Position numbers and translations under genes: made by a program. Positions 8,182 through 58,922 of a DNA stretch of 64,000 bases are shown piece by piece. Positions within the stretch are counted from its first letter, which is position 1, and the number at the start of each line of letters is the position of its first letter. The notes beneath the pieces were generated by a model. It made no database searches. It saw nothing but the letters and a program-made list of their open reading frames with translations, and was not told the DNA's origin. Location of the stretch: NCBI RefSeq assembly GCF_055900595.2, contig NZ_CM148325.1, one strand, 5' to 3'.

Positions 8182-8194
8182 CCGAGGAGACGTG

Positions 8195-37111: not shown

Positions 37112-37132
37112 GACGCGCCAGCGTCTTTTTTT
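37112..37132 (+). terminator. Putative intrinsic terminator downstream of the RT-nitrilase gene
   Basis: GACGC-GCCA-GCGTC hairpin followed by TTTTTTT. Confidence 0.45.
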
Positions 37133-37295
37133 GTGTTGTTCGCACGGTTACACCTCAATGGTGGGCCGGGCGGGGGCGTCGCAAGACGCGCCAGTGTCCG
37201 ATAAGGCTGGTAAGGCTAACCCTGCCCGGTTCCACCACCCGCGAGATTAGCCTCTCCGGTGGTGGCTTGAACACCCACTTATCGGAGGTTGCCCT

Positions 37296-39240: not shown

Positions 39241-39283
39241 GCGTCGTGAACCAATAGTGTACGTTTAGGTGGGTATTTTTCTG

Positions 39284-39718: not shown

Positions 39719-39720
39719 AT

Positions 39721-40176
39721 TTAGGAAGCCATCGAACGATAAAACTCAGCCGTTACACTTTTATCAATAACATTCTTGCACGGCGCATCTGATGGAACCC
39801 CTTCACGGGCCTCCAGCCACGGCTTTTCTTGGTGCGTCATCTGCTCCAGCTCATAAGCTGTATAACCGCCAAATACCTCATAGATTTCCTTTAGATGCTT
39901 TGACACATTCGCAGGTAACTCAGGGCAGGCAATCTCTTCGTCTATTGAGCGCCATTTGTAATCTGCAAATCTGGTATACAAATCTCTGGCTACAGGGCCA
40001 TGTACCCATGCTTCAAACTTGTCAGCAACCAGTTCTTCGCCATCATTCAGCGCCATGAACCAAGCATCAGCATAGAACACCATTTTTTGCAGTTTCAGCG
40101 GCGTCATAACATCCCCATGCTCTTGAGCAAAGCAAAGCAGGTAATCCGCTACGCTGTTAAGGGTTGTAACTGCCAT
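39721..40176 (-). CDS. Panacea-domain (DUF4065, SocA/GepA-like) protein; putative antitoxin
   Basis: AGGAG SD before ATG at 40176 (MAVTTLNSVADYLL...); LKLQKMVFYADAWFMALNDGEELV...FEAWVHGPV is characteristic of the domain. Longer ORF 39721-40407 is probably upstream read-through. Confidence 0.6.
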   Translation of the reverse strand: MAVTTLNSVADYLLCFAQEHGDVMTPLKLQKMVFYADAWFMALNDGEELVADKFEAWVHGPVARDLYTRFADYKWRSIDEEIACPELPANVSKHLKEIYEVFGGYTAYELEQMTHQEKPWLEAREGVPSDAPCKNVIDKSVTAEFYRSMAS

Positions 40177-40497
40177 TATCCAATCTCCTGCCGTATGTTT
40201 TCGTCTATAACTGTCCACTACCGTTAATAATCGCATATAACCACGGGTATTGCCCATCGTAAAATGCCATTTAAAGATTCTGCGTGATGGCTCACCATCC
40301 ACCGCGCAAGATACCCGGTGCGTTTGGCTGATAATCCGCAATTTGGTTGAAACCGTCCTGGAAACCTCAAGTTTGGAAACCAGCGACTTGCATCGTAGCT
40401 TTGCCATTCGGCGGTCATAGTTACTGCTATATCCCTTTATTGGCGAGACCTGCGAGAGGTTTTGTTGTTCGAATATATAAAGGTGAATAAAGGTAAT

Positions 40498-40683
40498 CTA
40501 CCTGCGCGGCGCAGGCTTCTTCCACTGGTAGGCGGGTGATCGCATCATTTCGCGAAATTTGTCACGCCGGGCTATATTGGCATTAACTGAGCGTTCTATC
40601 TCCCGTTGATCTGCCGGGGTTAGCTGGTGGCCTTCGTGCTCCAGTTTGGCGGTGGTCAATAAAGCTATTTCGCGTGGTGTCAT
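40498..40683 (-). CDS. Hypothetical small protein (61 aa)
   Basis: ORF only; charged, helical. Confidence 0.25.
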   Translation of the reverse strand: MTPREIALLTTAKLEHEGHQLTPADQREIERSVNANIARRDKFREMMRSPAYQWKKPAPRR

Positions 40684-40910
40684 ACGTCATACCCTCTGGA
40701 AGGATGAAACACGCCCGGATTAAATTTCATTTTTCGCGGGTATAAAAAAACGATGGGGCGGGCAGTCCCGGATAGTCAGGGCTGTAGAGATTTGACTACC
40801 CCCTCCCCACTGGATTCAGGTTACTGCTATTCCGTTAAGCGCTGCTTACGGGGATAGCTGCGTTGTGATTTTGACCATTCAGGTCGCCGCTATTTCCTCA
40901 CCGATTGGGT

Positions 40911-40942
40911 GCTACGCGCGCGCGTACTTGTCCCGAAATACC
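40911..40942. repeat. Copy 1 of a GC-palindrome motif (GCTACGCGCGCGCGTACTTGTCCCGAAAT)
   Basis: One of three same-orientation copies (with 42303 and 42589); core TACGCGCGCGTA is a perfect palindrome. Confidence 0.5.
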
Positions 40943-40980
40943 AGAAACCGCCAGCCAGAGGATGATTTCCCTCTGGTGGT

Positions 40981-41262
40981 CTACCTTTGCCTCTTGCCGC
41001 CATTTAACCGGAAGGCGTTACCGTTCGGTTGCGCTATCCCCATGCGGTGTTGCGTTTCGGTAACAGCTTTATGCAGGTCGCCAAATTCCTCAACCTTCAC
41101 GGGCGGGCGCTTCACGTTCTCCAGACACGTTTCACGGCGGCGCTTTATCCATTCCCGATCATCGTCCTCGCTGCATAACAGCATGACTTCCATCCATCGT
41201 GCGGCAGCTCTCCGGTATAGCCCTTTTGACACCAGCTCTTCAGCTTTCCTGTCCCTTATCAT
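40981..41262 (-). CDS. PerC-family transcriptional activator-like protein
   Basis: 93 aa; MIRDRKAEELVSKGLYRRAAARWMEVMLL matches the conserved PerC/Pch N-terminal signature (recalled). Confidence 0.55.
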   Translation of the reverse strand: MIRDRKAEELVSKGLYRRAAARWMEVMLLCSEDDDREWIKRRRETCLENVKRPPVKVEEFGDLHKAVTETQHRMGIAQPNGNAFRLNGGKRQR

Positions 41263-41295
41263 TTCTGCCTCTCAGATTATATAGATAAGCAAAAA

Positions 41296-41420
41296 GGTGT
41301 TGGTTCAGTTGGTTCAGTTGGTTCAATTTGTAAAGATCGTTGTTTTTATTATGTTTTTTCTAAAATATTGAACCAACATCAACTCATTTTGAACCAACAC
41401 AGCCCAGCTCTGAACCAACA
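41296..41420. repeat. Iteron array I: 3 direct + 3 inverted GTTGGTTCA repeats around an AT-rich spacer (origin-like)
   Basis: GGTGTTGGTTCAGTTGGTTCAGTTGGTTCAATTTGTAAAG ... TTGAACCAAC, TTGAACCAACAC, TGAACCAACA; the first 40 nt are the exact reverse complement of 49541-49580. Confidence 0.7.
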
Positions 41421-43671: not shown

Positions 43672-46398
43672 CTATTCCCATTCGCTAACATCTTTCATGC
43701 CACTGAGGGTAGCTACAATCCCGGCCCTTGTCAGTTTCACGAATTCTTCAGCCCCAACGGCATCACGAATTGCTTTCATGGCAATTTTATTGGCCGAAAA
43801 TCGTTTCTCTGCTGCGGCGATCGCTGCTGGTGATGCCCCTGCGCGCACTGCTTTTGTAGCTTCCTGAACGGCTTTCTCTATCGCATATCGACCACTTCTT
43901 GTCGCCCCAATCTTAGCCACAGCATTTCTTAGCGCGCCACCAGCAACCAAACCACTAATCGAACCAATTACACCACCGCCAAAGCCTCCAGCGATCGCAC
44001 CTGACTGTTGAACACCGTTCATAATCACGCCGACGATCTTTGGAAGGCCTGAATCGAGCGTTTTGAGAGCCTCAGTTGTTCTTCCCGTGCGCTCTACGTA
44101 TCGCTGCGGTCTGGTACTGGCTTTAGCGAGTACACCGAACTCTTTCATCATTCTACCGAGATCTGGCGCATGACGACTGATGGCGTTTACATTCTGCTGG
44201 GTCATGAGCTTGGCAAAATACTGGATACCTGACTCTTCACCGATTCCTCCCTTCTCTCCCTGCGCCACAGCATGCTGAAGAATAGATGCTATTGCAGGTT
44301 GGCGTTCTGCTTCCGGCAGCGCGGAGATAAGACGGTGAAAAGCTCCCGTTCCAGTGTTTGCGGATGCCTTAAGCGTATCGGCACCTTTTCTTACCATAGC
44401 GTCTGATGCGAGATCTCGACCAAAAACAGATTCGGCATTTTGTTTGGCGATAATGTAACTTTTAGAGAGATCGTTAGCTTTCTGCCATTCTGTGAGGAAG
44501 TTTCCTTTTTCAGCCATGATGCGCATGTCATCAGTGATAGCTCTGCGCATTTCTCCGGCAATCCGGGCGGCATTGGCCTTACCTGCCCGGGTGTTTGCTT
44601 GTTCAGCATCAGCAAACTTAGCACGCCATGCCTTCATCCCGTCGAAGGTTATGCCGCCACCTTGGTTGTTGGCAGCCTGAAACTGTTTCATCTCCGGGCT
44701 GAGTGGAACATTGGCTGCTTTTTCTGCTTGGACGACAGCCATTCCATTACTCATTTTCATCCTTTCGCGTGGCATCGTGCTTCGCAGTTCTGCCCATGCC
44801 ATATTCTCTGCTGTTTTCATATCACTGAGGCTCGCGATGATGCGCTCTTTAATTGCTGCGCTTTTTTCTGATGCGCTTCCAGACTCAGCACCGAAATCAG
44901 ACAACTGCTTATTCAACTTTGAGGATATTTCATTGAAGGCCGTAAGGTGAGCATCCTGAACATTCCCAGGAGTTGATGCCAGAACACCTTCTGCTTGGGC
45001 AATTCCACGACTACCTGAGCGCATTCCAGGCGTCAGGGTGTTGATATTAATACCAGTGATTTTCGCCGCCTTAGCGACATCATCTCTGACGTTTGATGCC
45101 TGCGATGCGATATGCTCTCGGCCTACGGCAGAACGCGCTGCTTTCGATACATCATTGGCGGTTTCCAGAGTATTTGCTGCCCCTAACACATGGCCTGATT
45201 GATTTGTATTACTCCGCAATACATCTCGCATTACGTCACTGGCTGTCTGTCCGCTCTTTATTAAAGCGCGTGCTCCTAGCGATCCTGCTAGGCCAATACC
45301 TGTCTCTTTTGCTAGGTCTTCTGGGCTGATCTGCCCGTTCTTTTGGGCGTTCACCAATGTACCTGGCAGGTTTTCTGCCAACATACTAGCCACCTTTGTG
45401 GCCGCACGTTCAGCACGTGGAGCGTTGGCAACTGAAGAAGCTGCGGTAGCTGCCTTTCCTGCACCTAATCCTGTAATAAGGTAAGGTGCTAGCTGCTCAC
45501 CAGCCTGCGCGTATGGATCTGTAGGTTGGTCTACTGGGCGAAAGACAGGTGATATGGGCGTGTATGTGCCATCACCCACACCAAGCTTCTGAGCTGCCCA
45601 TGCTCCGGCTGATTGCGCCGCATTGACTACCCCCACGCCTGCGTCCATTACATCAAACGGTATATTAGCAATCCCTCTGGCCATCTGCTCTGGCGCAGCT
45701 TTCAGTCCTGGCGAAAGATATTCCATCTCAGGATTAAGGTTAGACTTGGCTACTTGCTGCTGCGGTTCCCCGGCATTTTCATCGGCGAGAAACTGAGCTC
45801 TTTTCTGCTCCCATGAACTGGCTGTTGGTAGTCCTGCTTCTATGTTCTTAAATTGCTGACGTTTTGCTTCCCATGCAGAAATATCTCCCACCTGAGAGAT
45901 TTCTTTATCAAGCTCTGAGTAGTCAGGCTGCTGAAGATTGCGATGTTGACTGGTTTGTGCAAACTGCAAGATTTCACTGTCATCAGGGATTATTCCGGCA
46001 TCTGCAAATTTACTTACGTAATTAGCCGTTTCATCTGGCAGTGTAGATTTACCGTTTCTGACGGCATTAATACGAGCATAGCCAGAATTATACCCAGCCA
46101 ATGCCATACCTATATCACCAAATCGCTTCATTCCTTTATTGAGATGGTTTGCTGCGATATCCATTTGCTTTTCAAATGGCAGTGAGCGCGGATCTGTTCC
46201 ACGATAACCAGCATCACTCATTACTGAGGGCATCAGTTGAGCAAATCCTCTAGCTCCTTTCGGTGACTCGGCACTTCCGTTACCACTAGATTCATTGCCA
46301 ACTAATGTTTCCATCGTCCCTGATGGGAAACCATATTTTTCATCGAGATGACGGGAATAGGCTTTCTGTTTTTCTGTCAGTTGTGCCATCATTGCCAT
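43672..46398 (-). CDS. Large protein with N-terminal lytic transglycosylase (SLT) domain; podovirus gp16-like internal virion/ejection protein
   Basis: 908 aa; SLT motifs (GARGFAQLMPSV ... ALAGYNSGYARI) then long helical region and C-terminal hydrophobic segment. Confidence 0.65.
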   Translation of the reverse strand: MAMMAQLTEKQKAYSRHLDEKYGFPSGTMETLVGNESSGNGSAESPKGARGFAQLMPSVMSDAGYRGTDPRSLPFEKQMDIAANHLNKGMKRFGDIGMALAGYNSGYARINAVRNGKSTLPDETANYVSKFADAGIIPDDSEILQFAQTSQHRNLQQPDYSELDKEISQVGDISAWEAKRQQFKNIEAGLPTASSWEQKRAQFLADENAGEPQQQVAKSNLNPEMEYLSPGLKAAPEQMARGIANIPFDVMDAGVGVVNAAQSAGAWAAQKLGVGDGTYTPISPVFRPVDQPTDPYAQAGEQLAPYLITGLGAGKAATAASSVANAPRAERAATKVASMLAENLPGTLVNAQKNGQISPEDLAKETGIGLAGSLGARALIKSGQTASDVMRDVLRSNTNQSGHVLGAANTLETANDVSKAARSAVGREHIASQASNVRDDVAKAAKITGININTLTPGMRSGSRGIAQAEGVLASTPGNVQDAHLTAFNEISSKLNKQLSDFGAESGSASEKSAAIKERIIASLSDMKTAENMAWAELRSTMPRERMKMSNGMAVVQAEKAANVPLSPEMKQFQAANNQGGGITFDGMKAWRAKFADAEQANTRAGKANAARIAGEMRRAITDDMRIMAEKGNFLTEWQKANDLSKSYIIAKQNAESVFGRDLASDAMVRKGADTLKASANTGTGAFHRLISALPEAERQPAIASILQHAVAQGEKGGIGEESGIQYFAKLMTQQNVNAISRHAPDLGRMMKEFGVLAKASTRPQRYVERTGRTTEALKTLDSGLPKIVGVIMNGVQQSGAIAGGFGGGVIGSISGLVAGGALRNAVAKIGATRSGRYAIEKAVQEATKAVRAGASPAAIAAAEKRFSANKIAMKAIRDAVGAEEFVKLTRAGIVATLSGMKDVSEWE

Positions 46399-47708
46399 CC
46401 CTTAAGTTTTGCCTGATAGTAACTTTCCGGCAGATAGCCATGTGCGGTCACATAATCCTTAACCAGTGAAGGATCCTGCAACAGCATTTTGGTATCAGTT
46501 TCTTCGTCCTTAGATTTGGTTACAGGAATACCGAGCCCGGCAATCTGTCGTTTCTGCATTCGAATAATTACGTCCTGCGCTTTATTCAACTCTCGCAAAA
46601 ATGCCTCATTGCTGGTTGCTGACTTAATGCCATTTTGAGATTGCATAAGGGCAGCCCTTTCCCCTTCGGTTGGGTTAGAGCCAAAAGTCCCTTTGAGGCT
46701 AGGCAGAATAACCTTTAGGTTGTATTCATCAGCTTTGGCGCGTAGGCTTCGTGTGTCTTCTGCTACATCAGGAAGGAATCCAAACCCCAGCGTCAGGGGG
46801 TTATAGTTCTGCGAGCGGGTAACGGCCGAAGGATGTTTCCCTACAATTCCCGCCAGTTCATGACCCACTTCAAGCGCAGAGTTCAAGGAGTCGATGTTAC
46901 CTGCAACAGTATTAATTTTATCGTTCATCTTCTCCACTTTCGCCTGCTGTATCTTGCTCAGTTCAGCATTGAGCTTGTCTCTCTCGATGTCATTTTGAGC
47001 ACGTCCAAGTCGTGCTTTCAGAACCATTTCTCTCGTGCGTAGTTGGTTATCGGATAGGACTTTGAACTGCTCCATATCGAGACGTCGATTACCCTGTTCC
47101 GCATTAACCTGAGCATTATATGCGGATGTATCTGCGTTCTGCTGTGCAATGCTCTGCCCTTGCTGCTTCTCTTGAACACTAAAGTAACTATTTGGATCAG
47201 CATGGAGGTGGATGAGGTCAGTGATTCTGTTGAATTCCTGTGGGTCATTCTGCCAAGACTGATAAACCTCTTCAGCAGGAAGACCAAATCGCTGTAATAC
47301 TGGATTTGCCTGCTGAATGGCCTTCTGCATGGTCAGTGGATCTCCAGTTTGTGACGCAAGACGCAGATTCATGGCAGCGTCAGCGGTCTGTCGATTTTGC
47401 TCAGCATCAATGAATCCCATCTGTTTTTGAGAATCAGCCATAAACTGGGGATACTGGGCCATTAACTTCTGCACGCCAACACGATCATTATTAGCTACCG
47501 CACTACCCAACCGTGCCTGATATTCTTTTAACTGCTGGGAAATTTGCGCCTGCTGATTAATCTCAGCAACGCCTCTTAGCCCCTGTAGCGCCATTAAACC
47601 TACGTTTGGCTGCTGCTGATACTGCACAGGCTGAGGAACGGAAGAACGAGGAGCATTATCATTTTGCGGTGCCATGCTAGGCAGCCCGCCAAGTTGCCAT
47701 GTCGCCAT
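46389..47708 (-). CDS. Gln-rich coiled-coil protein (439 aa); gp15-like by size and position
   Basis: Overlaps neighbours by 1-10 bp; no enzymatic motif. Confidence 0.5.
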   Translation of the reverse strand: MATWQLGGLPSMAPQNDNAPRSSVPQPVQYQQQPNVGLMALQGLRGVAEINQQAQISQQLKEYQARLGSAVANNDRVGVQKLMAQYPQFMADSQKQMGFIDAEQNRQTADAAMNLRLASQTGDPLTMQKAIQQANPVLQRFGLPAEEVYQSWQNDPQEFNRITDLIHLHADPNSYFSVQEKQQGQSIAQQNADTSAYNAQVNAEQGNRRLDMEQFKVLSDNQLRTREMVLKARLGRAQNDIERDKLNAELSKIQQAKVEKMNDKINTVAGNIDSLNSALEVGHELAGIVGKHPSAVTRSQNYNPLTLGFGFLPDVAEDTRSLRAKADEYNLKVILPSLKGTFGSNPTEGERAALMQSQNGIKSATSNEAFLRELNKAQDVIIRMQKRQIAGLGIPVTKSKDEETDTKMLLQDPSLVKDYVTAHGYLPESYYQAKLKGWQ

Positions 47709-48385
47709 TAGAATCCAAGCCCCCCAACAAGACCAATAAGCCCACCACCAATAGCGCCGGCCGCAGTTCCTATTCCAGGAACAACGGAACCAAGTTGCGC
47801 ACCCGCTAAAGCGCCTGATGCTGCCCCACCAATACCACGCGCAAGACTGGATGGCTGCTGCGCCTGACCTGCACGAATAGCGCCAAGCCCCTGCAAGAGT
47901 TGTCCGGTATTATTGGCGTAGTTTTGCCCTGCCGTTGCCTGCCCTGATGCCGCATTCATCCCGACATTTAGCAGGTTTCCATAATTTTGCATTTGCCCAC
48001 TGAGCCAATTGTTATAAAGCATGGGCGCAATGGAAGATAACTGGTTACTGGTAGCTGTTGAGCCAAGCCCCCCGGTAGCTTCTGCTGAGACAAGGTTCTG
48101 ATAACGGGCCTGATCTGCCTGTGTTTTATATAAACCAGAACCAAAGAAATCATTCGCGGCTTTATTCTGCCCTTCCAGAGTCATCAGTCCTTGTAGTTGT
48201 TGTAAAGCAGGCAATCCGACTTCTGCATACGGCTTGAGATTATTCATCACCGTATTCCACTGCTCGCGCTGCAAATCAATTGCCTGCTGCTGGGCCTTCG
48301 CCTGAGCTTTAGAGGCACCACCATCACCGCCTTTTTCGTATACGGCACGATTGAGATGTTTATGAGCTATGTGGGTAATTAACAT
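47708..48385 (-). CDS. Protein with C-terminal glycine-zipper membrane segment (225 aa); gp14-like
   Basis: C-terminus GIGGAASGALAGAQLGSVVPGIGTAAGAIGGGLIGLVGGLGF. Confidence 0.5.
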   Translation of the reverse strand: MLITHIAHKHLNRAVYEKGGDGGASKAQAKAQQQAIDLQREQWNTVMNNLKPYAEVGLPALQQLQGLMTLEGQNKAANDFFGSGLYKTQADQARYQNLVSAEATGGLGSTATSNQLSSIAPMLYNNWLSGQMQNYGNLLNVGMNAASGQATAGQNYANNTGQLLQGLGAIRAGQAQQPSSLARGIGGAASGALAGAQLGSVVPGIGTAAGAIGGGLIGLVGGLGF

Positions 48386-48840
48386 TCGCTGAATTCCTTA
48401 TATTGTTGCCGAGTTAACTGATAAAGCGTTACGCCGACGGGTTTACCACATCTGATATAAGCATCATCAAGGTGACCAACACGGGTAGCGCCAAGCAAAC
48501 GGATAATTGCCCGTCCGTATTTGGTGGTGTCAGGAACCATGGTAATGCTGTTAAGGAATGGTGAGTTTTCGAGAAGCCATTTGCAGAATAATCGATGCCC
48601 TTGCAGTGCATATTCACCACGGAATCCGGGGTCGTACACCGCATGGCATTCAACAACGCTATGCCAGAAGTTACGCACTTCATGAACGCCAGCCAGCACT
48701 AATCCTTCGTAGATGCCGAGATATACCGCATCAGGCTTGATGTAGTACGTGTGCCCCGGCTCAACAATATTTTCGGTATTGCCTGGCTCGTTAAGAAAGG
48801 CCTGTAATCGCACAGGGTTATCAATAAATTTTAGTTCCAT
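48379..48840 (-). CDS. Hypothetical protein (153 aa); first gene of the four-gene module (gp13-like position)
   Basis: ORF with coupled start; no recognisable motif. Confidence 0.5.
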   Translation of the reverse strand: MELKFIDNPVRLQAFLNEPGNTENIVEPGHTYYIKPDAVYLGIYEGLVLAGVHEVRNFWHSVVECHAVYDPGFRGEYALQGHRLFCKWLLENSPFLNSITMVPDTTKYGRAIIRLLGATRVGHLDDAYIRCGKPVGVTLYQLTRQQYKEFSEC

Positions 48841-49465: not shown

Positions 49466-49580
49466 TGTTGGTTCAAAATACCGTGTTGTTGGTTCAGTGT
49501 TGGTTCAATAAAAAGAATAAAATCCTTATAAAACAATACTCTTTACAAATTGAACCAACTGAACCAACTGAACCAACACC
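49466..49580. repeat. Iteron array II: 3 direct + 3 inverted GTTGGTTCA repeats around an AT-rich spacer, next to the primase gene
   Basis: Same architecture as array I; 49541-49580 is the exact reverse complement of 41296-41335. Confidence 0.7.
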
Positions 49581-49602
49581 TTTTCTACGCACATGAAGAA
49601 GC

Positions 49603-52362
49603 TCATTCTTCAGATGAGTTATAATCTCCTGGCTGGTAATTGAGTACATAAACGTTTATTTGTCGTCCCTGAATACGTGGTGATTTTCTTTGGTATCCAC
49701 GACCGCTGTTTGGTGGGGTTAGCATCCCGGCTTTTTTCAACACTTCAGCAAACTGTTTTGCGTTGAAACCACATGCGATCTCCTTTTCAAATGTGGCCGG
49801 GAATGTGTAGAAAATCATTGGGCTTTCGTCATGTTCTCCACGCTGACGGTATCCGGCTAAATCTTTGATGGGCAAATCTGCCGGGCTGTATGGAAATGGT
49901 GCAAAACGGCTAAGCCCATAGGCATTAAGAAATGCCTCCGTTTGTTCAATAATCTGCTGATGTTCTTTGTTACCTGTGCCGAACTCGCGCAACCATGCGT
50001 TATAGCTGTGCTGTATCGCATCACGGCATGTCTGAGCATCCCAGCCTGTTACAACCTCGCCTAACAGCAATGCGGCCTCCAGAATGGCAAATCGCGCGGC
50101 TACACGGTGAACCTGCTCACCATAATCGGATGGGATCAGGCTTCTCCATCTGCTTTCGCAATCACGAACGGTTTTAATAGCCTGTTGCTGGTGGTCTGCC
50201 AGCCATTTAATCCACTCACGCCCGGACGCGCCGTGGTGATGCTGGTAAGCGTCTTTCAGTGCGTCTGCGTGCTGTTTTCCGTTCTGGTAATCGTGAAAGC
50301 GTACTGCTTTACTCAACGGAATATTCAGCAGTCGCACCAGTTGCCCGGCTTTGGTTTTTCGCCCGGAAGTAGCGATAAATGTTTCTAAATCCATTTCTCC
50401 GGTGCTGATTGCCACTGTACGCCAACGTTTTAGATCCCGGTTTCCACCATCTTTAGCGCCTTGCAGTTTCCCTACACCGTTAAATAACGCATAGGCAGAC
50501 TGTGAAACGCTGACAGGATCAGCGCCCTGACCAACTTCATCAAGCGGCATTAGTCCGTCATTGTGGGCGGCGGCCTCATTTGCCAGCCCCAGCGCGGTTC
50601 CGTACCACGTCAGCCGCAGTAAATCAGGGTTGCCGTATAAGCTGCTCGCCACGTTTGCCGTGGTGGTCTTACCTGCGCTCGACTGCTCATAGAAATGAAT
50701 GCCGAACCCGTCAGCGCCCACCAGCCCAATCAATGGCGCTGCCAGTGCTGCGCCGATCCCGGTCATCATTGAATAGTTACCAAAGGCCAGACGCGCCACG
50801 TTATCACGCCAGCTTTTCGCGCTCCCTGAGACGGTATATCCGGCTGCGGCTGAGCTTCTCCCGCTGAACAGCACAGGATTTTCAGGTGTTCCGATGATTT
50901 CCCCATCAGGCATGATGTACGCTCCGCATTGCCAGCCAGTGGCATGAGCAACACGCCACAATTCACGAGAGCCACTGCGTTGTAGCCAGTCTGCCAGTAT
51001 TGCTCTGAGGCTGCTTTTGGTCGTGACATTTACCCCACCAGCTTTAAGTGTGCGCCATCCTTCACGTTCACCAATATCAGCCAGTGGAATGGCAGCGGTT
51101 GTCGGCGTTTCAGAACCAAACGACAGCCAGCGAAGAATGAGATACTGGTCTTTATCGTCTCTGCCAGTACCGATAACGCTTAACGGAGAACATAACCAGC
51201 TTTCGTTATTGATGATTTCTCCACTCTGGCTGTCAGCTCTCGGAGATACCCAATAAATACCATCCTCGCGGCTTTCTATTCTTGGTTTCAGTGGGTCGGT
51301 ATCCATAACCTTAAAATCGCTTCCCTCAATGGTCTGTGGCTCCTGTTTCACGCCATTACCCTGTGGTTGGTACATTGACTTATTGAACGCTTCTGTGGCG
51401 CATTTAATGCCGTGTTTTTGGTGGTAATCATTCCAGTCTGCTTTGTGATCTGTCGGGGGTAATGCCACCCATCCAGAAACAGATAAAGCTGCTTTTTCTG
51501 CTGCTATTCTCCCCGTGTTTTGTCTTCCTTCGCTGTGGTCGTTATCCGCAGCAATGATGATTTGTGCTGAAGGATATTTATCCCGCAGTACCTGGGCGAC
51601 ATATAACAGGTTCCCGGCATCAATCGCCGCCACTGTCAGCGCCTCTGGACGAATTAAATGGGCAGATAATGCCGTTGCCAGCCCTTCTGCGATTAAGATG
51701 CTCTGTGTTGTTTCTGGTGCGTTTATGGCGTGATATGCCCCCCGCTTTGCTGAACCTGTCAGGAGTCTTTTTTCACCATGTGAGGTAATAGTCTGTGCTG
51801 CTGTGACTGCGCCGGATTTATCCACCAGCGCCAGCAACAGAGATCCATCGGGCAACACGGGGAATGTAAAATCACCTACCCCTTTCGCAACCAGATAATC
51901 AGATTTGCCGTTTACAGCCTTTCTGCGCATGTCATCAAACTGACGGGAAAACGTATCCCGTCTTTGTTGTTCGTCCTTCTCTGCCCTTTTCAGGCGCTCC
52001 TGTTCGCGTCGCTGGCGCTCGGTTTCCAGTTGTTCCCGTTTCTGGCTGGTGGCTTCTGGTGTTTCCGTTGTCCGGTAATCAATACCCAGAACATCAGCGG
52101 CAAGAAGCGCCGCCTCTGTTGTGTCGCAGTTATTTACGCGTTTAATTAAATCCAGCCCATCACCAGCGCCGCACTGATTACAGATGAAGCTACCGCGCCC
52201 GTTGTCATCGAACCGGAATCGATCTTTGCCCCCACATGCAGGGCAGGGAGCATGACGGCGCGGAGAGTCAGGGACATTTATGTTCAGGCAGCCCAGCACA
52301 TGAGGCCAGTTGTTTTCAGACGCACTGATAACCTGACGGATAAGATCAATGTTTCGCATCAC
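49603..52362 (-). CDS. Primase-helicase (P4 alpha-like: Zn-binding primase + TOPRIM + P-loop NTPase)
   Basis: 919 aa; N-terminal zinc ribbon (CPACGGKDRFRFDD...CNQCGAGDGLDLI), TOPRIM-like acidic region (IIIAADNDHSEGRQNTG), Walker A-like SSAGKTTT. Confidence 0.85.
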   Translation of the reverse strand: MMRNIDLIRQVISASENNWPHVLGCLNINVPDSPRRHAPCPACGGKDRFRFDDNGRGSFICNQCGAGDGLDLIKRVNNCDTTEAALLAADVLGIDYRTTETPEATSQKREQLETERQRREQERLKRAEKDEQQRRDTFSRQFDDMRRKAVNGKSDYLVAKGVGDFTFPVLPDGSLLLALVDKSGAVTAAQTITSHGEKRLLTGSAKRGAYHAINAPETTQSILIAEGLATALSAHLIRPEALTVAAIDAGNLLYVAQVLRDKYPSAQIIIAADNDHSEGRQNTGRIAAEKAALSVSGWVALPPTDHKADWNDYHQKHGIKCATEAFNKSMYQPQGNGVKQEPQTIEGSDFKVMDTDPLKPRIESREDGIYWVSPRADSQSGEIINNESWLCSPLSVIGTGRDDKDQYLILRWLSFGSETPTTAAIPLADIGEREGWRTLKAGGVNVTTKSSLRAILADWLQRSGSRELWRVAHATGWQCGAYIMPDGEIIGTPENPVLFSGRSSAAAGYTVSGSAKSWRDNVARLAFGNYSMMTGIGAALAAPLIGLVGADGFGIHFYEQSSAGKTTTANVASSLYGNPDLLRLTWYGTALGLANEAAAHNDGLMPLDEVGQGADPVSVSQSAYALFNGVGKLQGAKDGGNRDLKRWRTVAISTGEMDLETFIATSGRKTKAGQLVRLLNIPLSKAVRFHDYQNGKQHADALKDAYQHHHGASGREWIKWLADHQQQAIKTVRDCESRWRSLIPSDYGEQVHRVAARFAILEAALLLGEVVTGWDAQTCRDAIQHSYNAWLREFGTGNKEHQQIIEQTEAFLNAYGLSRFAPFPYSPADLPIKDLAGYRQRGEHDESPMIFYTFPATFEKEIACGFNAKQFAEVLKKAGMLTPPNSGRGYQRKSPRIQGRQINVYVLNYQPGDYNSSEE

Positions 52363-52717
52363 CGTACCCCACGTGGTCTATAGCGTTTGCGATATGGCTA
52401 ACCAGCATCTGCCACTTGGTTATTCCGTAATCAGTCAGCATGCCATCATTGTTTAGCCACATATCAAATTCAGCGGTTGTCGCAAGTTTCCACTTATCGC
52501 CGTGGGCAGTCCTCATTGCTGGGTACATGAATGCGCAAATCAGATCACAAACATCTGACGGCTTCAGAGATGTAGTAATGATGCGTCCCTCTGGCGTCTG
52601 AATTGCCATTTTCTCTTCACCAGTAGAATGAAGGTTATGAATCCACACAGCACCAGCAATCTTTGCCACCTGCTCTCCGATTGCGGAGCTAAGCGCCATT
52701 TCTGCATTTTCACGCAT
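52346..52717 (-). CDS. Hypothetical protein (123 aa)
   Basis: ORF with overlapping stop/start coupling in a run of small minus-strand genes. Confidence 0.4.
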   Translation of the reverse strand: MRENAEMALSSAIGEQVAKIAGAVWIHNLHSTGEEKMAIQTPEGRIITTSLKPSDVCDLICAFMYPAMRTAHGDKWKLATTAEFDMWLNNDGMLTDYGITKWQMLVSHIANAIDHVGYGDAKH

Positions 52718-53051
52718 GAGAACCTCCCGCTACAGTTGCGCCCATGTCATTAACCATGCTTTGCCATATCTCACGCCCGACGTCAGTCAATCCGTCCTTA
52801 GTGACGCAACGATCAAGAAGCTCGATCCCCACGGTTTCCCACTGCGGGTAGAACACTTTCATGGCTGCCAGTGTGTAGCTATCGATCAGGCTGCGAACGC
52901 CTTTTACTCCATTGACGATTTCCACACGGACGGCCTCGCCGTCCGCATCAACCATGAAATAGTCCCCGCCGCTGGTGGAGGTAATGTGGTTATACAGTGC
53001 CGACGCATACTTATTTGCCAGCGCATTCAGTCGGAAATTTTTAGTAATCAT
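52710..53051 (-). CDS. Hypothetical protein (113 aa)
   Basis: ORF, coupled to neighbours. Confidence 0.4.
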   Translation of the reverse strand: MITKNFRLNALANKYASALYNHITSTSGGDYFMVDADGEAVRVEIVNGVKGVRSLIDSYTLAAMKVFYPQWETVGIELLDRCVTKDGLTDVGREIWQSMVNDMGATVAGGSHA

Positions 53052-53061
53052 GGTTCCATCC

Positions 53062-53664
53062 TCAGTGCGTCACTGGTTCCGCTGGCATGCCGTTTTCATT
53101 CAGTTCAGCTATAAAGCTGTTGTGAAGTTCAGCAAGCGTTTCACGACCAAATGGAGTCAGTGCTCCTTGTTCCACATCCATCATGGCTCTGTAGAAAATG
53201 ATGGCGCGTTCTGTGCCAGACTCGATGCCAAAACGTTCTATCATCGCGCCCTCAATGTTGTTTGCCATAGCGAGGCGCTCTGCTACTGGATACAGCGGCA
53301 TGGCGACGATGCCGTTGGAATAAACAGCCACTTCGGAAGGGTTGCCAGTATCATCAATGATGCTGACAGTGCCGTTTTCCTCTCTCATTTCCAGCATGAA
53401 TACTGTTGCGATCAGCCATCTCCACATAATGACGTTATGCTGTGATGTGTAATCGAAATATCCCTGGTTGCCGCCATCGGCTATAGCGAGATGTATTGAC
53501 ATACCTTCATCTGGTTTATCGTCATAATCCCCGGCATCCAGACGATTTACGGCATCAATATATGAGACGGCCTCAACGCGTTCTGTCATGCCATCGTTGC
53601 TGCGGTACATGATGTTTACGCCGTCAGGCGTTGCTTCTGCATGGAAAGTTAAGAAATTATTCAT
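53062..53664 (-). CDS. Hypothetical acidic protein (~200 aa)
   Basis: Start taken at MNNFLTFHAEAT (GAGGCGA SD); the longer 235-aa ORF overlaps the upstream gene. Confidence 0.4.
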   Translation of the reverse strand: MNNFLTFHAEATPDGVNIMYRSNDGMTERVEAVSYIDAVNRLDAGDYDDKPDEGMSIHLAIADGGNQGYFDYTSQHNVIMWRWLIATVFMLEMREENGTVSIIDDTGNPSEVAVYSNGIVAMPLYPVAERLAMANNIEGAMIERFGIESGTERAIIFYRAMMDVEQGALTPFGRETLAELHNSFIAELNENGMPAEPVTH

Positions 53665-53878
53665 GTTTCGCCTCGCCTGAATGATTCTGTAACTCATATT
53701 TGCCCAACAATTCGTCTGCTTCCTGAATAGCTTCTGGTACGCCATTGAGCAGTGACATAACCGCGCCAATCATTAACTTGTCTCTGTTGCTGGGGCTGGC
53801 CCCTTCAAGCCAGAACCCTAAAACAGTCTGAACCTGTTCGATGCGACATTGTGCTTCAATGAGCTGGATGTTGGTCAT
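53657..53878 (-). CDS. Hypothetical small protein (73 aa)
   Basis: ORF, coupled. Confidence 0.35.
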   Translation of the reverse strand: MTNIQLIEAQCRIEQVQTVLGFWLEGASPSNRDKLMIGAVMSLLNGVPEAIQEADELLGKYELQNHSGEAKHE

Positions 53879-54138
53879 TTCGCACTCTCCGCATCGATTA
53901 AACTGATATCTATCAGAGAGGTAACTTTTTGTAGCCAGCTAGTGATTACTGTCGCCTGTTCCCCTCCCACCGATGGAAGAATCTCATTCATCACATGAAG
54001 CAGACCTGTGCGCGCCCTGGTAAGCCGTTCAGTCGTGCGATCTGCAAGAGTGAATGTGTCTGGATATGGCTCTTCACGGCTCAGCAATGATTCAATTTCC
54101 AGCTCACACGGATGACGATAAATTAAGTTGATATTCAT
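53875..54138 (-). CDS. Hypothetical small protein (87 aa)
   Basis: ORF, coupled. Confidence 0.35.
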   Translation of the reverse strand: MNINLIYRHPCELEIESLLSREEPYPDTFTLADRTTERLTRARTGLLHVMNEILPSVGGEQATVITSWLQKVTSLIDISLIDAESAK

Positions 54139-54329
54139 TTTTCACCACCAAGAATTACCAGCTCTGCACGAGCATCGTTAACCAAAGATGAGCACGCTTT
54201 AATCGCATCCACGACATCAGCAGCGTCCATTTCTTCAGCCGAAAGACTGACAGCAACCAGGACAGCCGCTGCTTGCTCGATTAATTGAAGTGCGGACGTA
54301 AGTCGAGGGGCATTAATTGAGTTATTCAT
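54135..54329 (-). CDS. Hypothetical small protein (~64 aa)
   Basis: Start taken at [10 protein letters not shown]; Ala-rich helical. Confidence 0.3.
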   Translation of the reverse strand: MNNSINAPRLTSALQLIEQAAAVLVAVSLSAEEMDAADVVDAIKACSSLVNDARAELVILGGEK

Positions 54330-55389
54330 TGGTTGCCCCCGTTTTTCCTGGCATTTCGCCACCTTCCAGCAGGAAATGAACGTCACGAACGGCGAGATCC
54401 AATATCGCGAGTAACGCCTTCAGTCTTTCGTCTCGTGAGGGAGAGTTGCTCACCAGAATGTCGTTAATCACTTCTGTCAGTGTGATGATCTGGCTTGTGC
54501 GTTCGAGGGGATCCATATGCACATCGTAGGTTTTAATCATGTGCCACCTCCATGCGGATACGACCAGCAAAAAAGCAGACGTGATCGCGCACCAGAGAAC
54601 GGCGAGCATCGCGTTCAGACTCGGCAGCAATATGATGAATTTTGGCGGTAATTGTCGGGCAATCGCGGCGAACTGCGGCGATAATCCAGATAAATTGCGG
54701 TTTTTGGGTAGGGGTAGTAGCCAGCATGTGGCAGCCTCCTTGTACTGGGAATTCTTCCCACCACCGGAGCTGCGAAACTCGCTGGTGGTGGACTGAACAG
54801 AGTTCGCAGTACCGGCGTACAAGGAAACCGGCCAGCCTTTCGGCTGCCCTGTCCAGCCCACCATAATTTTGCAAGCGACGCGGATTATAACCACATCACT
54901 GAAAAAAGTGTGAGTCTGGCTAACGGCACAAAAAAAGACGCTCGGCGCGTCATGTGTCGCCTCGTACATTTCCGGGCTGCGAAACCCGGCACCCGTTTTA
55001 TGAGGTGCCTTATAACCATAAACCGTGTTGCCGCATAACGGCAAGCTCTTTTTTATGGACTCCGAAAACTCACTATTGGAAGAACCAGAAGCACAGTACA
55101 TCGCGCTCATTTCGTTAACGTCACGCGCGTGGACGAATGTTTTTGTGGAGTCACTACACGAGCGGAAGACATCATCTACGACCAGAAATTTTCTGGCGCA
55201 GCCGCTGACCTTCTCAAGGCTAATATCATCGCCCGAGATTTCTGGTATGGTTAAGGCATCCGTTCCGGCCACCAGCAAATGATAAACTTTGCTTGTATCT
55301 GCTGTATTAATGCCTGACTTTGCCGTCATATTTCTGGATTTTGGCGACATACCAGCCAGTGAAAATGTCTTCTTCTGGATGGGTATCAT
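54322..55389 (-). CDS. Uncertain ORF (355 aa); may be two genes, with an internal start at 54540 behind a strong GGAGGTG SD
   Basis: Continuous frame, but upstream two-thirds is low-complexity and a well-placed SD+ATG at 54540 suggests a separate 73-aa product ([19 protein letters not shown]...). Confidence 0.3.
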
Positions 55390-55565
55390 TGGTTAACCTC
55401 CGCGAACTCCTTCATGAAACGCGCCAGCGGTTGTACGCATGGCGATTGATACCCGTCGCGATAAAACGTCACTCGGTTGTGAGACACGCTTTCGACAGTA
55501 ACGAGTGCTCCGTGGGCATCTTTGTAGCGTTTTTGAGGTTGTGGTGTTCCTGTCGGCTTAAACAT
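55386..55565 (-). CDS. Hypothetical small protein (~59 aa)
   Basis: Start taken at MFKPTGTPQPQ with GGAGG SD; the longer 88-aa ORF overlaps the upstream gene. Confidence 0.35.
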   Translation of the reverse strand: MFKPTGTPQPQKRYKDAHGALVTVESVSHNRVTFYRDGYQSPCVQPLARFMKEFAEVNQ

Positions 55566-56391
55566 GGACCGCCTCCAGACGCTTGGCGAGCCAGCGTTGC
55601 GACAGGCGGGTGAGTTCTCCTTTACGCTGCTCATATTCCATGCCCATATCAATTAACGTGATATTGGTGCTTTCGAGATATGAGAGGTGCTCAAGCTGTT
55701 CTGCGTTCATATGGTCGCGAGGTTCGCCAGAATAGCCATTTATCCGCGCCCACTGTTTAGCAGTTAGCCCACCAAGAACGATACGAGAAATCATATTGCT
55801 CTCGTTTGTGTAGTGGTGTTGCTGCGTCGTTTTACCCATCTCGGCACGGGCCATATTCAGCGCATCGCACATTGGCTTAAAGTTGTTTGCGGCACTGATA
55901 CGGGCTTTTAGCTGGCGACGATAGCGGGCGGCGATTTCAGGCACGCTACGCTGTAATTCTTCCTCGCACTGGATGAAATAACGGCGGATAGCGCGCCCCT
56001 GATCATTGCGTTCGATCATTGCCAGTTCTTTCGCCATTCCGACACTTAACAGATAGTCTTTGCCGGGTCTGCCAGACTGCTTAATCTTGCTGTAAGCCGC
56101 GTCATTCGGGCTTTTCCCCAAATTTGGGGAAATTGTTTTATGGACTGAGTAATCGTGCCCAATGGTGAAGTCATATTCAGAGATGCGATCAGTGATCCAT
56201 GTAGAGAAGTCTTTTCCCACGCCCAACGCTTTGTGTAACGCTTTTGCGCTAACAATATTGGTTTCACGCCCACCGATATGACCAGGAATAACCGGGACAA
56301 TTGCGGCAAATTCATTACCGTTAATTGTGCCCAGAGAGGCGTTCAGATGAGGGGCAGCCTCAGAAATTAATCTGCTTTTTTCGATGTTCAT
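55558..56391 (-). CDS. Phage antirepressor-like protein (AntA/KilAC-type)
   Basis: 277 aa; LHKALGVGKDFSTWITDRISEYDFTIGHDY resembles the AntA N-terminal region (recalled); basic C-terminal helical region. Confidence 0.45.
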   Translation of the reverse strand: MNIEKSRLISEAAPHLNASLGTINGNEFAAIVPVIPGHIGGRETNIVSAKALHKALGVGKDFSTWITDRISEYDFTIGHDYSVHKTISPNLGKSPNDAAYSKIKQSGRPGKDYLLSVGMAKELAMIERNDQGRAIRRYFIQCEEELQRSVPEIAARYRRQLKARISAANNFKPMCDALNMARAEMGKTTQQHHYTNESNMISRIVLGGLTAKQWARINGYSGEPRDHMNAEQLEHLSYLESTNITLIDMGMEYEQRKGELTRLSQRWLAKRLEAVHV

Positions 56392-56403: not shown

Positions 56404-56835
56404 TTAGGCGGCGTTAAACGCGTCCGGGTAGAGTTTCAGAATGTCGGCAATTTCCTGCTGAGAAAGTCCGTTGTGATCATTTATGTTCGCAAGATGGTTA
56501 ACATGAGTGATCACTTTCAGAACATCACCACGGCAGGAGAAACGGTAGCGAAGGTGTGTTCCGATACCATCAGGATTCTTTTCGTCGATACGCTCCAGAG
56601 TGATTCCAAGCTGGCGTTCTAACTCTGTTGCATAGTTACGACCAGAAGACAGACGGCAGTAGCGAAGAATGTCATTTTCTGTCCATCCCTCTATACCAGT
56701 ACGCAGCATATAGACTCTGGCACGATGCTTTTTCGGTGTGCGCTTTGGTGCTTGAAGGGATTTTGTAAGGGGCGTAACATCAGATACACGAATATCTGAA
56801 TTAGCCGCCTGTAATGGGCGGTTTTTCTTTTCCAT
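56404..56835 (-). CDS. Hypothetical protein (143 aa)
   Basis: ORF between alpA and the antirepressor-like gene; its stop overlaps the alpA start. Confidence 0.4.
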   Translation of the reverse strand: MEKKNRPLQAANSDIRVSDVTPLTKSLQAPKRTPKKHRARVYMLRTGIEGWTENDILRYCRLSSGRNYATELERQLGITLERIDEKNPDGIGTHLRYRFSCRGDVLKVITHVNHLANINDHNGLSQQEIADILKLYPDAFNAA

Positions 56836-57038
56836 CAGGCCACCTCGTCTCTAGATTCTAATATACACTTCTCAATCCATTCATCTATTTCAGACTCAAC
56901 AAAAGCAATTGCCCGACTTCCAATTTTTACCTGTTTAGGGAACCTCCCCTGACTAATAAGACGATAAATCCATGCTTTGCTATAACCAGTTCGCCTTTGA
57001 ACTTCAGAGAGACGAATTAATGAATTGTAATTAGCCAT
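56835..57038 (-). CDS. alpA: AlpA-family phage transcriptional regulator / excisionase-like protein
   Basis: 67 aa; LIRLSEVQRRTGYSKAWIYRLISQGRFPKQVKIGSRAIAFVESEIDEWI is the AlpA HTH signature. Confidence 0.85.
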   Translation of the reverse strand: MANYNSLIRLSEVQRRTGYSKAWIYRLISQGRFPKQVKIGSRAIAFVESEIDEWIEKCILESRDEVA

Positions 57039-57466: not shown

Positions 57467-58681
57467 TCATGCGTGTTTTTCAAACACCATATGCACCACA
57501 TTTCCGCCATGCTCGAGAGAATCCATATAGTCGGCATACCATTGAAGCATCTCCCGCCTTCCATCCAGATATTGCGCATGGTTGTATGTGCCACGAATTG
57601 AGTTCTTATCAACGTGAGCGAGCTGCGTTTCTATCCACGCGGTGTTATAGCCCTGCTCATGCAAAATCGTACTCATAGTGTGCCGGAACCCATGACCAGT
57701 TACACGTCCAGCGTAGCCAATGCGCTTAAACACTTGGTTTATGCTGGCCTCGCTCATTGTTTTCCTTGGATCATTGCGCCCGGGAAACATAAGAGGGTAA
57801 TTGCCTGTTATTTCTCTAATCTTCCCAATAAGCGAAAGAGCCTGCTCAGACAATGGCACAATATGAGGCCGCCGCATTTTCATACGTGAAGCGGGTATCT
57901 CCCAGATAGCCTTGTTGAAATCAATTTCATCCCATAATGCGCCACGTAGTTCGCCAGTCCGCAAGCCGGTGATAATCAGTAGACGAGCCGCCATAACAAC
58001 CAATGCGCTTCCTGAGTAACTGGACAATGCCTTGAAAAAATCAGGTAATTCTTTGGCTGTAAGGAAAGGGTAATGATTAGATTCATGGCCTTGCATCGCG
58101 CTAGTAAGGTCTGGTGCAGGGTTATACTCTGCGCGACCAGTGACTATTGCATAGCGGAAAACTTCCCCGCACCGTTGCCTCACTTTTTTGGCTTTTTCTG
58201 TAGCACCGCGCCCCTCGATGCGACGCAGCACATTCAGAAGTTCAAGTGGTTTGATTTCGGCGATGGGTTTTTTGCCAATGTAAGGGAACACATCTTTGTT
58301 GAAGGCTTCGAGGATGTCTGAAGCATAACCAGCAGACCATTTTTTTAATTTGCTGCTGTGCCACTCAAGGGCAATATCTTTGAAGGTGTTGTTTAACTGC
58401 GTTTCCCGGGCAATCTTTTCCTCTCGTTTCGCTTCCATCGGATCGATACCACCAGCGATACCTCTTTTCGCATCTTCACGTTTTGCCCGAGCATCGGCTA
58501 GAGTAACCTCAGGATAAACACCTAGTGCCAATAGCTTCTCTTTACCAGCTACACGATATTTAAGTCGCCAGTATTTACCTCCATTAGGTTTTACCAAGAG
58601 ATACAAACCGCCACCATCGGCCAGCTTGTAAGCCTTCTCTTTTGGCTTGGCTGTGTCTATTTGACGGGCATTGAGTTTCAC
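57467..58681 (-). CDS. int: P4-type tyrosine integrase
   Basis: 404 aa; N-terminal MKLNARQIDTAKPKEKAYKLADGGGLYLLVKPNGGKYWRLKYR; catalytic region HGFRHT...(Y); directly downstream of thrW, same orientation. Confidence 0.9.
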   Translation of the reverse strand: MKLNARQIDTAKPKEKAYKLADGGGLYLLVKPNGGKYWRLKYRVAGKEKLLALGVYPEVTLADARAKREDAKRGIAGGIDPMEAKREEKIARETQLNNTFKDIALEWHSSKLKKWSAGYASDILEAFNKDVFPYIGKKPIAEIKPLELLNVLRRIEGRGATEKAKKVRQRCGEVFRYAIVTGRAEYNPAPDLTSAMQGHESNHYPFLTAKELPDFFKALSSYSGSALVVMAARLLIITGLRTGELRGALWDEIDFNKAIWEIPASRMKMRRPHIVPLSEQALSLIGKIREITGNYPLMFPGRNDPRKTMSEASINQVFKRIGYAGRVTGHGFRHTMSTILHEQGYNTAWIETQLAHVDKNSIRGTYNHAQYLDGRREMLQWYADYMDSLEHGGNVVHMVFEKHA

Positions 58682-58846: not shown

Positions 58847-58922
58847 TGGTGCCGATAATAGGAGTCGAACCTACGACCTTCGCATTACGAATGCGCTGCT
58901 CTACCAACTGAGCTATATCGGC
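58847..58922 (-). tRNA. thrW: tRNA-Thr (anticodon CGU), thrW; integration site
   Basis: 76-nt minus-strand sequence GCCGATATAGCTCAGTTGGTAGAGCAGCGCATTCGTAATGCG...GGCACCA folds as a cloverleaf with CGT anticodon and CCA end. Confidence 0.9.

Follow-up and report, generated by a model that had tools for sequence, protein, structure and literature searches.

A 355-codon reading frame through the RNA immunity cassette of the satellite island EcCIMP1 is probably the counterpart of P4 eta

We analyzed a stretch of 64,000 nt of contig NZ_CM148325.1 (RefSeq assembly GCF_055900595.2; this whole stretch is called the window below), which carries at a tRNA-Thr gene the phage-inducible chromosomal island (PICI) EcCIMP1. 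On the minus strand of this island, an open reading frame (ORF) of 355 codons, named 'ash family protein' by the NCBI Prokaryotic Genome Annotation Pipeline (PGAP), is probably the counterpart of the eta gene of the satellite P4 and runs through the RNA immunity switch of the regulatory and replication operon of EcCIMP1. Its homology to eta is indicated by two properties that were missed in a preliminary description of this DNA, namely that the whole frame is actively kept open and that it is coupled in translation to the upstream gene. The description had listed the 355-aa ORF with its ATG start, as found here, and had suggested that it could be two genes, a fusion or partly non-coding. This was essentially right, and all three apply at once: the ORF holds two RNA genes, an Icd-like gene (icd) in another frame and a small gene (orf72) nested in its own frame. 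It is a known kind of system in a known element, and its layout differs from that of P4 in one defining respect, as icd is not nested in the frame. The ORF and the elements within it are as follows.

54322-55389, minus strand: eta-like ORF, 355 codons with an ATG start (PGAP 'ash family protein', WP_021527546.1), ending at the stop of orf72
55021-55389, minus strand: variable 5' third of the eta-like ORF, without similarity to distant relatives and unalignable between subfamilies
55015-55044, minus strand: candidate PLE-like constitutive promoter (TTGCCG-18-TATGGT), ending 6 nt before the isrK-like 5' end
54931-55008, minus strand: isrK-like leader RNA (the target region called seqA in P4 and a1-b1 in P1), Rfam RF01394, 69 bits (gathering threshold 50)
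54983-54977, minus strand: a1, UUCGCAG, complementary to C4 a'
54968-54960, minus strand: b1, UGUACGAGG, complementary to C4 b'
54874-54900, minus strand: conserved hairpin between terminator and C4 whose loop is UUAUAAU, outside every Rfam model
54781-54868, minus strand: C4/CI-type antisense RNA, Rfam RF01695, 81.1 bits (gathering threshold 45), full length 1-87
54827-54816, minus strand: C4 b' loop, UUUCCUUGUACG, pairing with b1 and b2
54809-54803, minus strand: C4 a' segment, CUGCGAA, pairing with a1 and a2
54776-54770, minus strand: a2, UUCGCAG, a downstream C4 target
54745-54735, minus strand: b2, GUACAAGGAGG, a downstream C4 target that is the Shine-Dalgarno (SD) sequence of icd
54533-54727, minus strand: Icd/Kil-like gene (64 aa), NCBIfam NF033153
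54322-54540, minus strand: orf72 (72 aa), in the frame of the eta-like ORF and nested at its 3' end

The middle third of the ORF (55020-54728) is a highly conserved cassette of structured RNA. Its leader ends in an intrinsic terminator detected by a terminator scan (stem from 54951 to 54937 and a run of seven T residues). Comparison with related loci, 79 of which were collected from viral contigs, demonstrates that the leader hairpins are 99-100% paired among relatives and carry compensatory changes, and that the C4 stems are 99.8-100% paired, with compensatory changes as well. The hairpin with the UUAUAAU loop folds in all unique variants (mean z of -3.0), and 8 of its 10 pairs have changed on both sides. 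In the window, C4 can form duplexes of 7 nt between a' and each of a1 and a2, of 9 nt between b' and b1, and of 11 nt between b' and b2 (GUACAAGGAGG). The complementarity of a' and b' to a1/b1 and a2/b2 is present in all 46 unique loci compared, where 22 distinct b' loops covary with their targets; cognate C4-target duplexes average 8.9 and 9.5 nt, compared to 5.1 and 5.2 nt for non-cognate ones. An alternative stem between the 3' arm of C4 and GGUGGUGG(G) at 54765-54757 is 97% paired, with four pairs changed on both sides. Over an ungapped alignment of 35 distinct cassettes, 95.3% of the proposed pair cells are paired and 25 pairs show compensatory changes, while controls with slid positions reach 35-46%. 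Judged by these comparative criteria, the RNA cassette is functional. By analogy with known C4 RNAs, the one described here would be cut from a longer transcript (by RNase P and PNPase) and would repress in trans. A block of approximately 340 nt is all that is conserved in P1-like, Stx, phiP27 and SfV phages, whose flanks are not conserved.

The eta-like frame is free of stops across this cassette to a degree that the base composition of the columns does not predict. In 45 unique cassettes, no stop was observed in this frame against 83 expected from column shuffles, whereas the two control frames were at expectation (134 observed vs 128 expected, and 232 vs 238). Locus by locus, 56 of 59 unique loci contain no stop in this frame across the cassette, and the other frames contain one to six. 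The spacing from isrK to C4 is either 97 or 85 nt in 56 of the 59 loci, a difference of 12 nt and hence a multiple of three. Upstream of the leader, the median open length is 271 nt in the eta-like frame vs 33 and 60 nt in the others. Moreover, 36 of 52 unique contexts have an upstream ORF of at least 50 codons whose stop is overlapped or directly adjoined by the first ATG of the frame; GGAGG or a G-rich SD-like sequence typically lies ahead of this ATG. In the window, the ATG at 55389 overlaps the stop of a DUF4222 gene (ATGA) with GGAGG ahead of it, and the ORF spans both RNAs from 55008 to 54781.

No matching constraint on the encoded amino acids was observed. Codon-position entropies over the cassette are 0.57, 0.58 and 0.56, with neither a third-position excess nor periodicity. 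The first third of the ORF (55389-55021) differs by 9.5% among close relatives, without indels, vs approximately 1.7% in the flanking genes; it thus diverges about five times faster than they do and also exceeds their synonymous sites (synonymous divergence, pS, of about 0.05). The ratio of nonsynonymous to synonymous divergence (pN/pS) in this third is 0.63-0.72 with no frame preferred, and over icd, among diverged relatives, it is 1.5 in the eta-like frame vs 0.29 in the Icd frame. These values do not describe a single conserved protein with purifying selection along its whole length, an outcome that would have spoken against the composite nature of the ORF suggested earlier. The N-terminal two-thirds, once called low-complexity, fall into two unlike parts: the first third is indeed fast-evolving and unconserved, but the middle third is the conserved structured RNA. 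Together, the absence of stops, the lack of codon periodicity and the high ratio over icd indicate that it is the openness of the frame, and not the peptide, that selection preserves.

Several observations concern the 5' part. A motif near its N-terminus (M-I-x-x-Q-K-x-x-S-L-A-G-L-M) recurs across loci and in P4. The window copy has a different allele of the variable third than the EcCIMP1 of MP1. Just upstream of the leader, 'EF-x-ESIKKG' recurs in the translations of many loci, and one locus (L048, 7427-8653) contains three tandem copies; the underlying DNA is an A-rich stretch followed by TTGCC, so what recurs may be a promoter or UP element in the DNA and not a motif of the peptide.

The downstream end of the ORF contains two genes. 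The internal start at 54540 with its SD sequence (GGAGGTGGCACATG), singled out in the preliminary description, is real and belongs to orf72, whose ATG (54540-54538) follows GGAGG and overlaps the icd stop by 8 nt. Homologs of orf72 are recognizable at the amino-acid level (median pN/pS 0.46), and by this measure orf72 is a real small gene made up of the last 72 codons of the 355-aa ORF. The icd gene lies wholly inside the eta-like ORF in another frame, its ATG (54727) falling at codon position 3 of the long frame, which continues through icd and stops 211 nt later at the stop of orf72. The Icd-like protein matches NF033153 with 71.7 bits (cut-off 25), the same model gives 76.1 bits for P4 Kil, and the two proteins are 44% identical (E=4e-11). 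This family is annotated as host cell-division inhibitor, and FtsZ targeting and toxicity of the product are predicted by family membership. A tblastn search of phages with the Icd-like protein gave no hit at E<=1e-3, which is uninformative for so short a query. The 5' half of icd is C-rich and G-poor (C/G ratio 1.3-2.3) and resembles the Rho-dependent terminator timm of P4, located at 8365-8209 of X51522 within the kil ORF (PMC3177188).

Two architectures can be distinguished by the position of the icd start. In 20 unique loci, including P4, the ATG of icd or kil is in the frame of the long ORF, and the latter ends at the icd stop in all 20. The window belongs to the other 39 unique loci, in which the ATG of icd is placed earlier by one nucleotide and the long frame reads through icd and terminates 172-868 nt later, together with the following gene. 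Across icd, this shifted frame has no stop in 38 of the 39 loci vs 5 of the 20 with icd in frame, so the frame is kept open wherever the long ORF uses it; the third frame over icd is stop-free in none of the 39 and in 1 of the 20. In one subfamily (L004, L005, L010 and relatives), the Icd-like protein has 81 aa and the eta-like frame runs 375 codons further into a tyrosine-recombinase gene, which results in apparent 'Ash-integrase' fusion ORFs of 517 aa in viral contigs.

The only protein family assigned to the long ORF is PF10554 (Phage_ASH), from which PGAP derives the name 'ash family protein' and which matches aa 124-232 with 99.7 bits (gathering threshold 26). These residues correspond to nt 55020-54694 and hence to the leader, C4, the icd SD sequence and the first icd codons. 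In the window and P4, as well as nine other loci, PF10554 coincides exactly with the RNA cassette, and ten eta-like ORFs contain no protein domain beyond it, except for an integrase gene read in frame downstream of one of them. Because it is the RNA cassette that these residues translate, little can be concluded from the match about protein function. In a survey of P4-like satellites (PMC8628076), P4 epsilon ('Ash') was represented by the profile PF10554. Within P4 (NC_001609, 7888-8584), however, PF10554 matches the eta/'cI' ORF and epsilon matches PF25738; as a marker, PF10554 therefore detects the RNA immunity cassette and not the helper-derepression gene. Annotation by PGAP is inconsistent even on near-identical genomes: APEC E19025 has the 355-aa 'ash family protein', while 83972 and MP1 have an 'ash family protein' pseudogene and an Icd-like gene, despite an intact frame in both. 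In FDAARGOS_1281, a 57-aa 'ash family protein' has been placed over a second cassette (see below). The C4 and isrK RNAs are unannotated in all four genomes.

The closest known system is that of P4. Its ORF at 8168-8812 starts at the stop of the alpA-like ORF88, spans isrK and C4, ends with kil and is eta, and the position of the old 'cI gene product' coding sequence holds the Rfam elements C4, isrK and c4-a1b1. According to the summary of Forti et al. (1999) given in PMC10111431, a constitutive promoter lies inside eta, its transcript is terminated via interactions of CI with seqA and processed to CI, and Kil corresponds to a shortened Eta; Eta of full length is made only on transcripts of the upstream late promoter, by coupling to the alpA homolog, and its translation prevents termination, with the result that the downstream genes are read. 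The same article states that the Rfam C4 and isrK models match several PICIs. As in P4, the long ORF of the window is coupled to the regulator gene upstream of it and extends over the CI/C4 RNA and its targets on either side, in the leader and downstream. Behind the RNA, a gene of the Icd/Kil family comes first, then small genes and then a primase gene; both long ORFs also match PF10554 and have a similar N-terminal motif. The window differs from P4 in several ways. The kil gene is nested in the eta frame and shares its stop, whereas icd in the window is out of frame and the nested in-frame gene is orf72. In addition, the window ORF has an extra variable 5' part of about 120 codons, the spacer between leader and C4 is 97 nt with a conserved hairpin (142 nt without a hairpin in P4), and the small genes are unrelated to epsilon, orf151 and cnr.

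Other relatives share parts of this arrangement. The immI operon of P1 and P7 (c4, icd, ant; RF01695, RF03163, clan CL00128) has the same pairing of C4 a' and b' with a1/b1 and with a2/b2 over the icd ribosome-binding site, as well as an Icd-family first gene overlapping the start of the next gene. In contrast, the gene controlled in P1 is an antirepressor and not a replication operon, and in the P1-like phage RCS47 the corresponding frame covers the isrK-like part only and stops before C4, so that there is no eta-type ORF. The isrK of Salmonella Gifsy-1 (Hershko-Shalev et al. 2016, PMC4825925) belongs to the same Rfam leader family; there, a terminator yields a short RNA and read-through a long mRNA, and alternative pairings of the middle of IsrK with downstream sequence control how a small ORF and the gene behind it are translated. 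The alternative stem in the window is comparable, as far as the published description allows. In Gifsy-1, however, the short RNA activates in trans, the output is an antirepressor and the antiterminator AntQ, and a long spanning ORF is not described. A spanning ORF arranged as in the window is also present in SfV (orf37, annotated 'immunity region') and in phiP27 (L16). In the available text of the report on EcCIMP1 (PMC11773190), the 'Ash family protein' appears solely as one of the conserved genes, without an analysis of the RNA cassette.

The segment 42298-59037 of the window is 98.9% identical to EcCIMP1, which is a PICI in E. coli MP1. The two have the same genes, and several of their proteins share an accession; on this identity, the island at tRNA-Thr is the same element as the published one. 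Mobilization of EcCIMP1 by phage Kapi1 has been demonstrated experimentally (PMC11773190); this is known for the island of MP1, and for the window copy we assume it from the 98.9% identity. As in other Gram-negative PICIs, the island has a tRNA site, an integrase, AlpA and a primase, without a full set of virion genes. The genes proposed earlier to be phage early genes do form an early or replication operon, but that of a satellite and not of a phage. Besides the elements given above, the island end and the operon comprise the following features.

58847-58922, minus strand: tRNA-Thr(CGU) attachment site, marking the island end
57467-58681, minus strand: integrase (ORF list and PGAP)
56835-57038, minus strand: AlpA (Phage_AlpA, 71 bits)
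56404-56835, minus strand: orf143 (143 aa), part of the coupled operon upstream of the DUF4222 gene
55558-56391, minus strand: AntA antirepressor (Pfam AntA, 77 bits)
55386-55565, minus strand: DUF4222 gene (59 aa; Pfam PF13973, 87 bits), its stop overlapping the eta-like start codon
54135-54329, minus strand: orf64 (PGAP hypothetical protein)
53875-54138, minus strand: orf87 (PGAP hypothetical protein)
53657-53878, minus strand: orf73 (PGAP hypothetical protein)
53062-53664, minus strand: orf200 (PGAP hypothetical protein)
52710-53051, minus strand: orf113 (PGAP hypothetical protein)
52346-52717, minus strand: orf123 (PGAP hypothetical protein)
49603-52359, minus strand: primase/helicase (TOPRIM and DUF927; Pfam DUF927 162 bits, with Zn_Ribbon_Prim and Toprim_3 also matching)

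All of these genes are on the minus strand, in the order integrase, AlpA, orf143, AntA, DUF4222, the 355-aa ORF (with icd and orf72 inside), six small ORFs and primase. A run of about ten short overlapping minus-strand ORFs had been pointed out before, and ten are indeed found in 52346-55652, namely the six small ORFs, orf72, icd, the 355-aa ORF and the DUF4222 gene. Overlaps of 4 nt (ATGA) or 8 nt (ATGAnTAA) are present at nine junctions, and orf200 and orf113 are separated by a 10-nt gap. From alpA (57038) to the start of the primase gene (52359), nearly all junctions are overlaps of 1, 4 or 8 nt, with two short gaps that contain an SD sequence. By these overlaps, the six small genes from orf64 to orf123 are translationally coupled down to the primase gene, and by analogy the latter would be the last gene of the operon under control of the cassette.

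These features can be combined into a model of how the switch might work. In the resident state, the constitutive promoter inside the ORF would make the leader and C4, and C4 would pair with its targets and block the ribosome-binding site of icd; the untranslated, C-rich icd region would then let Rho terminate transcription, and the small genes and primase would be off. Once the operon of alpA and antA is turned on by induction, ribosomes would enter the eta-like frame by coupling and cross the cassette, and this translation would stop both C4 pairing and termination, so that the chain down to the primase gene could be expressed. We suggest, as a tentative proposal that may well turn out otherwise, that the eta-like ORF is a 'ribosome conduit', selected only for being translatable from end to end, through which helper-induced ribosomes override the switch. 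The out-of-frame layout would allow them to pass icd without making Icd and to deliver translation to orf72 and the replication genes, and a single nucleotide between SD sequence and ATG would toggle it to the layout of P4, where Eta has Kil as its C-terminus.

Several points weigh against this account of the ORF. It is by analogy with P4 that we propose the promoter, Rho-dependent termination and an influence of translation on immunity. We infer the internal promoter from its sequence and from an alignment by eye with the same position of P4 (TTGCCT-18-TATAGT); it agrees with the consensus at 8 of 12 positions and is below the threshold of a consensus scan. Since the leader ends in a good intrinsic terminator, transcripts from this promoter would need read-through to reach C4, unless C4 has its own promoter at the TATAAT hairpin. 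The comparison also has a narrow base: the 79 loci were fetched with one 18-nt motif from the 3' end of isrK and represent one subfamily, and because they are phylogenetically related, the shuffle statistics overstate their independence. Finally, some cassettes lack an eta-type ORF (the second copy in the window, locus L081 and phage RCS47), and thus the transit of ribosomes is not a universal requirement of C4 systems.

The annotation implies a different reading, in which the 355-aa ORF encodes a conventional protein, either of the 'Ash family' or a regulator of the Bro network, whose amino-acid sequence matters and whose gene the RNA genes merely overlap. It agrees with the full-length coding sequence in APEC E19025, the Pfam score of 99.7 bits, the open frame with a coupled start and an SD sequence, and the N-terminal motif that recurs across loci and in P4. 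We nevertheless consider it quite improbable. The cassette shows no third-position excess, the 5' third has a pN/pS of about 0.6-0.7 with no preferred frame and cannot be aligned between subfamilies, and the ratio over icd reaches 1.5. The C-terminal part varies by locus, being Icd itself, a +1 reading of icd plus orf72, or integrase. Furthermore, the extent of PF10554 agrees to the base with that of RNA elements, and the covariation of these elements accounts for its conservation; the ten ORFs of this type lack any other domain, apart from the downstream integrase read in frame. The opposite reading treats the long ORF as an annotation artefact: 55385-54728 would be a non-coding leader with RNA genes, followed by icd and orf72, and the frame would be open by chance or inheritance. 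Rfam does place two RNA genes inside the ORF, PGAP calls a pseudogene and Icd in 83972 and MP1, the 'cI protein' coding sequence of P4 is a known historical mis-annotation of an RNA gene, and there are cassettes that lack such an ORF. This reading is just as hard to credit, because stops are avoided in this frame only (0 vs 83 expected) and the avoidance extends upstream of the cassette; over icd it is seen only where icd is out of frame (38/39 vs 5/20). Moreover, the isrK-C4 spacers of 97 or 85 nt differ by multiples of three in 56/59 loci, and the start is coupled in 36/52 contexts.

A further proposal, compatible with the identification of the ORF as the eta counterpart, is that the small genes between icd and primase encode anti-defense proteins or proteins for takeover of the helper or host. 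The equivalent position in P4 holds epsilon, which derepresses the helper prophage, and cnr; the Icd-like product, alone among these proteins, has an annotation directed at the host, its family being named as a cell-division inhibitor; and the small genes are mostly conserved across Enterobacteriaceae, with purifying selection on most of them among close relatives (pN/pS 0.07-0.09 for orf200 and 0.17 for orf64). On the other hand, none of the seven small proteins (orf72, orf64, orf87, orf73, orf200, orf113 and orf123) matches P4 epsilon, cnr, orf151 or any family of known function in the collections compared, which did not include one of anti-defense proteins. Their PHROG matches are to families of unknown function only, PADLOC returned nothing meaningful for them, and PDB sequence searches with orf200 and orf123 gave matches at chance level. 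The sole weak lead was a relationship of orf200 to P4 Cnr (DUF5375), based on faint precomputed Pfam marks on three homologs and a BLASTP stretch with E=0.015; it was rejected, as a fresh Pfam scan gave no match and hhalign a probability of 1.8%. An AlphaFold model of orf200 from a 20-sequence alignment was unusable (mean predicted local distance difference test, pLDDT, of 44). The proposal is rather unlikely for this set of genes, though it retains some plausibility.

The window contains a second cassette at 37053-37242 on the plus strand, with an isrK match of 66.5 bits and a C4 match of 71.1 bits, a leader-C4 spacing of 56 nt and no eta-type spanning ORF. It is followed by an ORF of 156 aa with no known function (37296-37766, plus strand), whose SD sequence pairs with the C4 loop, and is directly preceded by a defense reverse transcriptase of the RT_UG5-nitrilase type (999 aa; 33950-36949, plus strand; PADLOC 956 bits). 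In strain FDAARGOS_1281, thrW is the site of this module, and an AbiEii/AbiEi pair and the remnant of an integrase lie next to it; the window therefore holds the remains of a second thrW island.

Other parts of the region were also surveyed. The late region of the island (43672-48840, minus strand) contains genes of the ejection-protein type, which by our reading may be P22-like: an ORF of 908 aa (a lytic transglycosylase of 906 aa according to PGAP) and genes for a DNA ejection protein, a protein of 225 aa and a DUF2824 protein. Capsid and terminase genes are absent from this late region, as is likewise reported for EcCIMP1 in the available text of PMC11773190. Accessory cargo at 38346-41400 includes a pRiA4b ORF-3 family protein, a protein with a Panacea/SocA antitoxin domain and a PerC-family regulator, and the Panacea/SocA protein is not in the island copy of MP1. 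An inverted repeat of about 87 bp with about 88% identity is present at 49498-49584, just downstream of the primase gene, and at 41292-41378, near the PerC gene, and may be an origin or a packaging-related site.

As regards its wider meaning, the analysis resolves a locus with conflicting annotations and identifies a second architecture of the P4 type of switch, in an island that is experimentally tractable together with its helper Kapi1. The conservation of PF10554, a family from which proteins are widely named and which one study used as a marker of P4-like satellites, appears to be explained by RNA structure; if the long ORF does serve only for the passage of ribosomes, PF10554 describes an RNA cassette and not a protein domain. 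The new point is that what 'Ash family proteins' conserve is the RNA cassette and an open frame, which fits the passage of ribosomes, rather than a peptide, as their function. Dozens of satellites and lambdoid phages thereby lend comparative support to the model of 1999, in which translation across an RNA switch, and not a protein, decides whether the replication operon is expressed.

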